Shown here: piece by piece, positions 31,852-32,815 of the stretch
Position numbering within the stretch: position 1 is the stretch's first letter
Layout of the letters: each line of letters starts with the position of its first letter
Source: Saccostrea cucullata
Lineage: Eukaryota
Reading direction: 5' to 3'
Assembly: GCF_032062105.1 (NCBI RefSeq)
Contig: NW_026936003.1
Coordinates: 186,001-250,000, forward strand
Length of the DNA: 64,000 nucleotides
Position numbers and translations under genes: made by a program
Notes under the pieces: model-generated
The model's input: only the letters and a program-made list of their open reading frames with translations
Told to the model about the DNA's origin: nothing
Database searches by the model: none

Positions 31852-32815
31852 CCTAAGAAAATTCATAAGTCATAAATAAGGTGGTAATTAGAAACAACTG
31901 TAACAAGTGCTACCAATCAGTGTTTACTGAAAATATCATTATAATCAGAACCATTAAGGCCTGCGTTAACTGCATATATGATTATAAATCATATCTTTTG
32001 TTTGCTATTGATAAATAAAGTAGCATATTATATAAATATATGGGTGTACATATTTTGCCACAATCGGCCGAATTATTAAGCCGTGTGGATGAATTATATA
32101 AAAGCACGAACCGCTAGGGCAGTGTGATATCAAATCATAATATAAAATATAATACCACATATATGCCGAAGCTGTGTGGTTGGATCGTATATAACCACTA
32201 TCCGCCGAAGCAGTGTGGTAACAAATCATGATCCATATACATATAAAAAACCATATTGCCGAAGCAGAATGGTTCAATCATATATAAAAACACAATCTGC
32301 CGAAGCAGTGTGGTGAAACAATTATAGTTCATATATTAGCATTGGCCACTAATTGTGGTGCTTCCATTTGAAGCATAAATAAAAGTTGTTACTGCCAAAT
32401 AATTAAGCAGTTAGAACATGAATGATTTAGACCAAAGAAACGACTACGGCTAAATCATTAGGTTTTTCGTCATACAGAAATAGGTAGCCAAAAAACTCTT
32501 ACCTTCCAGGTCAAATAATAACAATATTGGAACCCACGGATGTAGATTCACCCTAGGACACAAACTTCTGCTGTAACCAAAATAATTGAATTGTAAACAT
32601 TGCTGAATATGCTTAACCAAAGGTGCAAAAATATGGACGATTCATGAAATTATTATGTAATATAAACCATAAAATTTTTATACTACTTATAAATCAAATA
32701 TTGTATGCATGATGATCATAAAAATAAAAAGTTAAAGAAATTTAAAATGTTAACAAGAACACATAATGTGTATTTTGCACCTGTGGACCCGAGAAGCCCC
32801 TGTCTTCAAGGGTAA

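Follow-up and report, generated by a model that had tools for sequence, protein, structure and literature searches.

A tandem hairpin array in the spliced leader intron of a Ngaro retrotransposon and its analogues in related families

The Ngaro element of the window and its hairpin array

The window, that is the whole stretch of 64,000 nucleotides analysed here, harbors on its minus strand a copy of a Ngaro element. Ngaro elements are tyrosine-recombinase retrotransposons of the order DIRS; Xenopus DIRS-53_XT, with its A1..B1-A2-B2 repeats, is an example (PMC9210276, PMC8547959). The genes in the window follow one another as SGNH hydrolase, leader, gag, reverse transcriptase (RT), RNase H and tyrosine recombinase (YR), which contains the gag, RT/RNase H, YR order expected of Ngaro (Table 1). 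The assignment, made in an earlier note from the sequence, is borne out by the split direct repeats of complete sister copies: L016 and L031, both of the window's family, carry A1..B1-A2-B2 repeats with 98-99% identity between A1 and A2 and 95-99% between B1 and B2, and A1-[ORFs]-B1-A2-B2 repeats also occur in complete copies of other families. A scan of seven frames with generic profiles gave no Pfam match to a methyltransferase-like domain, a trait of DIRS-like and PAT-like elements. An SGNH gene after the YR gene is an optional Ngaro trait; here it lies 5' of gag, which is a variant layout rather than a reason for exclusion.

Compared with its sisters, the copy in the window has suffered frameshifts, the loss of most of A1 and a truncation at about 28289, which leaves it without the 3' array described below and without B1-A2-B2; a (GATACG)6 microsatellite (28236-28271) adjoins the truncation point. 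The SGNH frame is shifted near 32940, with the downstream D-G-V-H motif and the stop still visible. The gag product has a basic N-terminus and a C-terminal CCCH plus CCHC-like finger, and its low-complexity linker contains a 21-nt tandem repeat (31585-31667) in four copies, five in the expressed copy. The repeat at 33558-33804 is foreign to the Ngaro element. It belongs to a high-copy host repeat family that occupies 33558-33804 and 33930-34280, is inserted into the element's 5' end and is very abundant in the RNA runs; relatives lie elsewhere in the window at 23840-24310. Just outside the Ngaro 5' end, a LINE-type endonuclease/RT ORF extends over 34267-37172 on the plus strand in two frames.

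Table 1. Features of the Ngaro copy in the window (positions count from the first nucleotide of the window)
Feature	Positions	Strand	Remarks
Tyrosine recombinase	28272..29327	-	HSFRIG motif; Phage_int_SAM and Phage_integrase matches weak, below Pfam cut-off
RT + RNase H	29207..30564	-	Pfam RVT_1 E 5.6e-13, RT_RNaseH E 5.8e-5; two frames
gag	30614..31851	-	ATG at 31851; split over two frames in the window copy
GT-AG intron with the whole array	31853..32502	-	650 nt; 12 junction reads; ends one base before the gag ATG
Hairpin 6	32058..32088	-	long loop, an insertion into a UUCG-type loop
Hairpin 5	32105..32126	-	loop CCUA in the window, UCUA in most sister copies
Hairpin 4	32154..32180	-	C-UUCG-G, inner stem 2 bp, -6.6 kcal/mol
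Hairpin 3	32194..32219	-	C-UUCG-G, -9.8 kcal/mol
Hairpin 2	32249..32274	-	C-UUCG-G, -10.0 kcal/mol
Hairpin 1	32291..32312	-	C-UUCG-G, stem/bulge/stem, -7.1 kcal/mol
Loose hairpin 0	32338..32362	-	5-nt loop, -7.4 kcal/mol
Short stretch upstream of the intron	32503..32570	-	3' end is the donor shown by junction reads; 5' acceptor (AG ending at 32571) predicted
Single hairpin with ACAGGGG loop	32793..32807	-	just after the SGNH stop; also after SGNH in five other families
SGNH/GDSL hydrolase ORF	32816..33381	-	Pfam Lipase_GDSL_2 E 1.8e-8; 5' of gag
Candidate upstream donor	33495..33506	-	GT starts at 33500, 120 nt upstream of the SGNH ATG; predicted from sequence
Inserted high-copy host repeat and (GTCT)n microsatellite	33558..33804		absent from sister copies; very high read depth
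5'-end remnant: 3' part of A1 and adjoining leader	33805..33901	-	97-100% match to sister A1 ends

The earlier note had described an array of six to seven hairpins in the leader, four of them with cUUCGg loops, and this description holds: all seven lie on the minus strand at the positions of Table 1, each, folded singly, takes the described shape with an energy between -6.0 and -11.8 kcal/mol, and four carry the loop C-UUCG-G. A strict count of contiguous stems misses these hairpins, which are bulged. The region 32040-32380 folds better than 100 of 100 dinucleotide shuffles, with z-scores of -3.89 on the sense and -2.85 on the antisense strand; compared hairpin by hairpin, the sense strand is the more stable one in only three of the seven. 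The long loop of hairpin 6 is taken as an insertion because five of ten aligned copies (L012-L014, L017, L018) have a short, UUCG-type loop at this place. An Rfam scan of 26500-34500, with covariance models that include U1, SECIS, IRE and ribozymes, gave no match over the array at E-values up to 5 and a single chance match elsewhere (E 4.6).

The spacers between the hairpins had been regarded as unrelated, which they are not: the five inner ones align with one another at a mean score of 7.5, compared to 2.7 +/- 1.0 after shuffling (none of 2000 shuffles reaches the observed value). The tetraloops are therefore duplicates of one unit rather than independent inventions, and the array is a diverged tandem repeat with a unit of about 45 nt; at 32119-32314, TRF finds 2.1 copies of a repeat with period 93. 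The number of units is variable, with partial duplications of the array in L015, L016, L019, L022 and L024, and duplication is also seen in RNA contigs. The leaders of L020, L021, L023 and L025 form a subfamily with a tandem duplication of SGNH and part of the leader, in which the donor context is weakened and several loops have changed from UUCG to UUUG, possibly by CpG decay.

Within the window's family alone, the case for selection on RNA structure, which had been built on unrelated spacers and compensatory changes, does not hold, and its support comes from other families. The two between-unit changes cited for it are real, but such changes are few. RNAalifold returns a covariation penalty of +2.61 for six copies, with both partners altered in one of 83 pairs, which lies outside the hairpins listed above. 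The inner stems of the five short-loop units in the window never switch to a second type of Watson-Crick pair, and 9 of 12 cells are paired, as with shuffled arms. Nor are the hairpins better kept than the spacers when five copies are compared with the window (conservation of 0.83-0.98 and 0.78-0.96, respectively). The copies of this family are too alike for a covariance model, and the loops cannot be aligned across families.

Splicing of the leader and the fate of its intron

The array lies about 140 nt from the donor (32502) and about 200 nt from the acceptor (31853) of an intron that contains 22 ATG triplets. The junction 31851/32502 is spanned by 12 RNA reads with nine different start points and up to 73 nt on the shorter side, found among the raw reads of run X24, about 47% of which was read for junctions; its ends, CT..AC on the plus strand, correspond to GT-AG on the minus strand. 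As a genomic control, the joined exon sides were searched at 25 candidate genomic places and found at none. The reads differ from the window at many places, and the expressed copy is therefore a sister copy or an allele. In three further runs, single-copy bins of the intron have about one half to one seventh of the contig depth of their flanks, a rough measure (about 12 versus 23-41 in X1, 43-47 versus 127-204 in X2 and 27 versus 184-324 in X12). Spliced and intron-containing sequence are thus both seen in RNA runs, where the latter may derive from unspliced RNA, pre-mRNA or DNA; the tissue of the runs is unspecified, and their splice ratios may not reflect the germ line.

Further upstream, a longer intron from 33500 to 32571, skipping SGNH, is predicted, and the donor at 33500 could let a gag message bypass the upstream SGNH frame. 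Depth steps in run X2 fit this intron; the donor at 33500 is not among the junctions listed. A candidate first intron between SGNH and the short exon was rejected, as RNA contigs run through it unspliced (piece 32502-33522 in X12).

Genomic copies of the window's family that retain both exon sides fall into nine flank groups, some of which may be haplotypes of one site, and all nine bear the intron. Spliced RNA would keep the repeats and ORFs, so that the absence of intron-less copies calls for an explanation. A different outcome is found in the family of L066, where the array lies 640-1560 nt before the gag ATG, upstream of and outside the gag-proximal intron. L071 (G000:C9391), a young, complete copy of this family with its own insertion site and both repeat pairs 100% identical, precisely lacks the gag-adjacent GT-AG intron of about 302 nt (at about position 2583 of the locus) and keeps all 12 hairpins. 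It is a natural record of retrotransposition through spliced RNA, and spliced Ngaro RNA can therefore be copied. Among the 25 leaders compared with the fetched loci, this is the only precise GT-AG loss, and a single event. RNA of the L066 family, the second family examined for splicing, yielded 53 reads and no junctions; the intronic position of the array is accordingly shown for the window's family only and is elsewhere predicted from splice-site words.

Two otherwise complete copies are without a 5' array, L031 of the window's family and L065 of the L061 family. Their deletions are single in each case and not of the GT-AG type, and among 19 and 53 matches searched, respectively, only the copy itself spans the deletion junction, so they may postdate insertion. 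L072 and L073 share a deletion but also a flank, and hence represent one site. The observations that bear on a need for the array in cis are thus intron loss in none of nine flank groups, one loss of an array-free intron and two array-less copies. On G000:C21286, Ngaro copies of one family follow one another at spacings of about 7.7-8.6 kb, in four sets of matches from about 62000 to about 86700, and in L110 the YR gene of one unit lies upstream of the SGNH gene of the next; head-to-tail tandem insertion is possible in both cases.

Hairpin arrays across families and hosts

In the surveyed animal genome assembly (1.17 Gb), at least 150 RT matches were listed, 40 were fetched and 24 distinct families, including the window's, were used. 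With no motif assumed, hairpins were counted if they had the same loop, an energy of -5 kcal/mol or lower and a place in the 1.5 kb preceding the gag ATG. At least four such hairpins precede gag in 16 of 24 families, compared to none of 24 pol stretches and three of 74 host tiles (37 tiles, both strands); as the families are related, Fisher p-values for this enrichment overstate the case. Most of the other families thus have a row of hairpins of their own, with a loop motif that is family-specific. The threshold was not reached by eight of the 24 families (six of the 22 in the clade described next). L035 is borderline, the ATG of L069 is uncertain, and a 25th row, L020, which belongs to the window's family, scored three.

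In an RT/RNase H tree, 22 families form one clade (support 100/99), in 20 of which SGNH was detected between A1 and gag (loci L032-L070); in the two outgroup families, L064 and L069, SGNH follows YR and no array is present. Loop sequence tracks RT phylogeny, and families within the same genome have different loops. The window's subclade of 11 families mostly has tetraloops closed by C-G (UUCG, UCUG, ACUG, GUUA), four families have UAUAUGGUY, and elsewhere GGACCAUA, UUUGUG, CAGUAU and others are found; one loop type persists across about 1.1 RT substitutions per site (L061 versus L052). Between L060 and a sister family, the array showed a higher BLAST identity than SGNH, a difference that was set aside since repetition of the units inflates this measure.

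The stems beneath these loops change, and they do so with an excess of pairing between the units of 16 families that is not found within the window's family. In a pooled test of 145 units (65 distinct), with loops picked by eye and three pairs considered beyond the closing pair, 157 of 195 stem cells are paired, compared to 138.1 +/- 4.1 with arms shuffled within families (at most 154 in 2000 shuffles), and 19 extra Watson-Crick types occur compared to 9.3 (at most 18); the shuffle ignores the kinship of units and families, and no single family is strongly significant alone. There is also a bias towards G-U (15) over A-C (four; p 0.019), which favors the sense strand.

Complete copies carry another array, with three to six hairpins after the YR stop (6240-6500 in the oriented L016) that present an ACAGGGG-type loop on variable stems. 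In five families, 79 of 85 stem cells are paired, compared to 72.2 +/- 2.0 after shuffling (maximum 79). Most families of the 11-family subclade have a related loop, and this second array is common to a wider clade than the leader array; it is the more slowly evolving of the two, and it may bind a different protein. Other clades have other 3' motifs, such as the CUGUC-UGA-GGCAG type in L052, L053 and L061.

Elements from other hosts were sought in metagenome contigs, where a scan with Gag alone gave no match and 30 of 79 loci, forming 16 clusters, had enough upstream DNA. Arrays with constant loops on changing stems are present in three clusters (L110, L113, L139), with UUCG-type loops in L113; the other 13 did not reach the threshold. 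SGNH lies 5' of gag in 11 of the 16 (e.g. L110, L113, L114, L127, L130). A hairpin array before gag is therefore common, but not universal.

Possible roles of the array and comparison with known systems

We propose that the array is a multivalent site, specific to each family, where the Gag encoded by the element itself docks, which would mark unspliced, full-length RNA as the template in a psi-like manner, and we give this proposal about an even chance of being correct. Splicing removes the array together with 22 upstream ATGs and joins the exons a single base ahead of the gag ATG; spliced RNA would make Gag. The C-terminal Cys/His double finger of Gag, or its basic N-terminus, would then bind the loops in several copies, and only intron-retaining RNA would enter the replication complex, which is what 'packaging' means here. 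Tandem duplication, having multiplied the unit, would tune the avidity. The Gag-binding or packaging role suggested in the earlier note fits because the array lies in a spliced intron, no examined copy lacks that intron, and other families have covarying analogues of their own. Fixed loops on changing stems point to a reader of loops on a single strand, the G-U excess points to sense RNA, and loops that are specific to families within one host point to an element-encoded binder.

Gag is a candidate for this reader. Its CCCH plus CCHC-like finger is found in 19 of 24 families, and also in the two array-less outgroup families, and the first residues of the clade's Gags form a short stretch rich in K/R. 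Two oyster proteins of 55-57% identity are the only named ones among 28 matches. The structural model has a helical core (pLDDT 63.7); Foldseek gave no match at E <= 0.001, and the best hit of a wide search (Z 5.9) is at an unspecific helical level, with no capsid chain among the matches listed, which excludes nothing. More tentatively, and with the odds in our estimate somewhat against it, the scheme may extend to a clade-wide leader switch, in which splicing deletes a hairpin barcode to make Gag mRNA and only barcode-keeping RNA is recognised by the family's Gag and copied, throughout a widespread animal clade.

We rank four other explanations below template selection by Gag. The next in order, which we consider unlikely, is a control switch for splicing or export, where an element protein on the array blocks splicing or licenses the export of intron-retaining RNA in a Rev/RRE-like feedback. 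It is compatible with docking of Gag and would affect template choice only indirectly. The array does lie between donor and acceptor, both RNA forms are seen, and the K/R-rich start of Gag could be a nuclear signal or an arginine-rich RNA-binding motif; but a local block on the gag-proximal intron is not conceivable in the L066 family, whose array is outside that intron, and such a switch alone would leave unexplained why spliced RNA, with repeats and ORFs intact, has left no copies in the window's family. Less probable still is a neutral minisatellite. Slippage or template switching in AT-rich intron sequence would have multiplied a self-complementary unit, quasi-palindrome repair would keep it paired, and the intron would be retained for another reason, such as a lack of germ-line splicing. 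The related spacers, the unit number varying by tandem duplication, the absence of covariation or extra hairpin conservation in the window's family, the many related elements without arrays, and the array-less copies L031 and L065 all suit this explanation. What speaks against it is that enrichment is specific to one position, that loops stay constant while stems change, that palindrome repair would not favor a sense-strand G-U excess, that unrelated motifs occupy the same place in different subclades, and that L071 shows leader splicing in RNA that gets replicated.

The array could also act as DNA, either as palindromic transcription-factor sites of an internal enhancer or as cDNA hairpins read by the recombinase or RT, which we regard as improbable. 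The hairpin arms contain the words TGTGGT/ACCACA, which we take to be a RUNX-type motif, five times in 321 nt compared to 34 times in 64 kb. The motif that other families repeat is not this RUNX-like word, and a dimer on double-stranded DNA would need fixed arms and a free spacer, whereas it is the loop that is fixed across families and the arms that vary. The per-hairpin energies favor neither strand, and DIRS-1 replicates through linear single-stranded cDNA (PMC7192593); first-strand cDNA, however, is antisense, and the wobble excess favors the sense strand. Least probable of all, and in our view hardly tenable, is a host-factor or translation element, in the form of a U1 stem-loop-4 mimic or an IRES-like aid for gag behind the SGNH ORF. 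The C-UUCG-G loop above an internal loop presumably resembles U1 stem-loop-4, the window's family has this loop on a bulged stem, and UUCG-type loops recur in L113 from another host. The translation role that the earlier note had also considered is disfavored because splicing cuts the array from the gag message; moreover, loops differ between families in one host, and the Rfam scan detected no relative of the array.

How elements of the DIRS order pick the RNA for reverse transcription is an open question, and for DIRS-1 even the primer is unknown (PMC7192593). The array is a small, mutable and testable cis-element whose removal by splicing is proven and for which an intron lost in nature serves as a control. 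If the clade-wide switch is real, then together with the second, slower-evolving array it would be the first RNA-selection signal to be defined in a tyrosine-recombinase retrotransposon of any kind, and a single genome would hold about twenty loop-protein pairs that have diverged naturally. Family-specific loops would explain how at least two dozen Ngaro families coexist in one genome without copying each other's RNA, and could supply orthogonal pairs of hairpin and finger with which to tag RNA. The array carries less weight because many relatives are without clear arrays and because Gag is a candidate reader. What this analysis contributes is the junction of the leader intron, a case in which an array-free intron was lost precisely, a comparison of 24 families against controls, and an SGNH gene placed 5' of gag. 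In the literature searched, no description of a Ngaro leader intron or hairpin array was found: the words 'intron' and 'hairpin' are absent from the main text of PMC9210276 and PMC3783388, PMC8547959 has no passage on either for Ngaro, and term searches of PMC7192593 and PMC12477816 returned none.

The elements described here share split direct repeats, gag, RT/RNase H, YR and an SGNH ORF with known Ngaro elements (PMC9210276, PMC8547959), but differ from those of amphibians, where SGNH follows YR (PMC9210276), by its position 5' of gag in most of the clade. Their arrays also bear comparison with other structured signals on intron-retaining RNA. The RRE, for instance, is bound multimerically. 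Like RRE and CTE, the array is a structured element present only in intron-retaining RNA (PMC4829213); unlike them, it consists of short repeated leader hairpins rather than one large fold, and no Rev-like ORF was identified. In BARE, a Copia element and thus of another order, Gag is made from a spliced RNA while a different pool is packaged (PMC3735527). The BARE pools that serve translation and replication differ by start site, cap and poly(A), and no hairpin array is mentioned in that account (PMC3735527).

A further parallel is retroviral psi, whose stem-loops, in the leader and adjacent to gag, allow Gag to pick out unspliced RNA (PMC5035971). In RSV stem-loop C, a UGCG tetraloop is contacted by an NC zinc finger, although the role of this loop in packaging is disputed (PMC5035970). 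Ngaro likewise has leader stem-loops near gag and, as a candidate pairing, a UNCG loop and a Cys/His finger, and in the window's family the array is on unspliced and absent from spliced RNA. The two also differ: in Ngaro, one small unit is repeated in tandem and its loop is specific to the family; gag would be translated from RNA that splicing has freed of the array, whereas retroviruses make Gag from unspliced RNA; and RSV psi lies upstream of the splice donor (PMC5035971), whereas the array of the window's family lies inside the intron.
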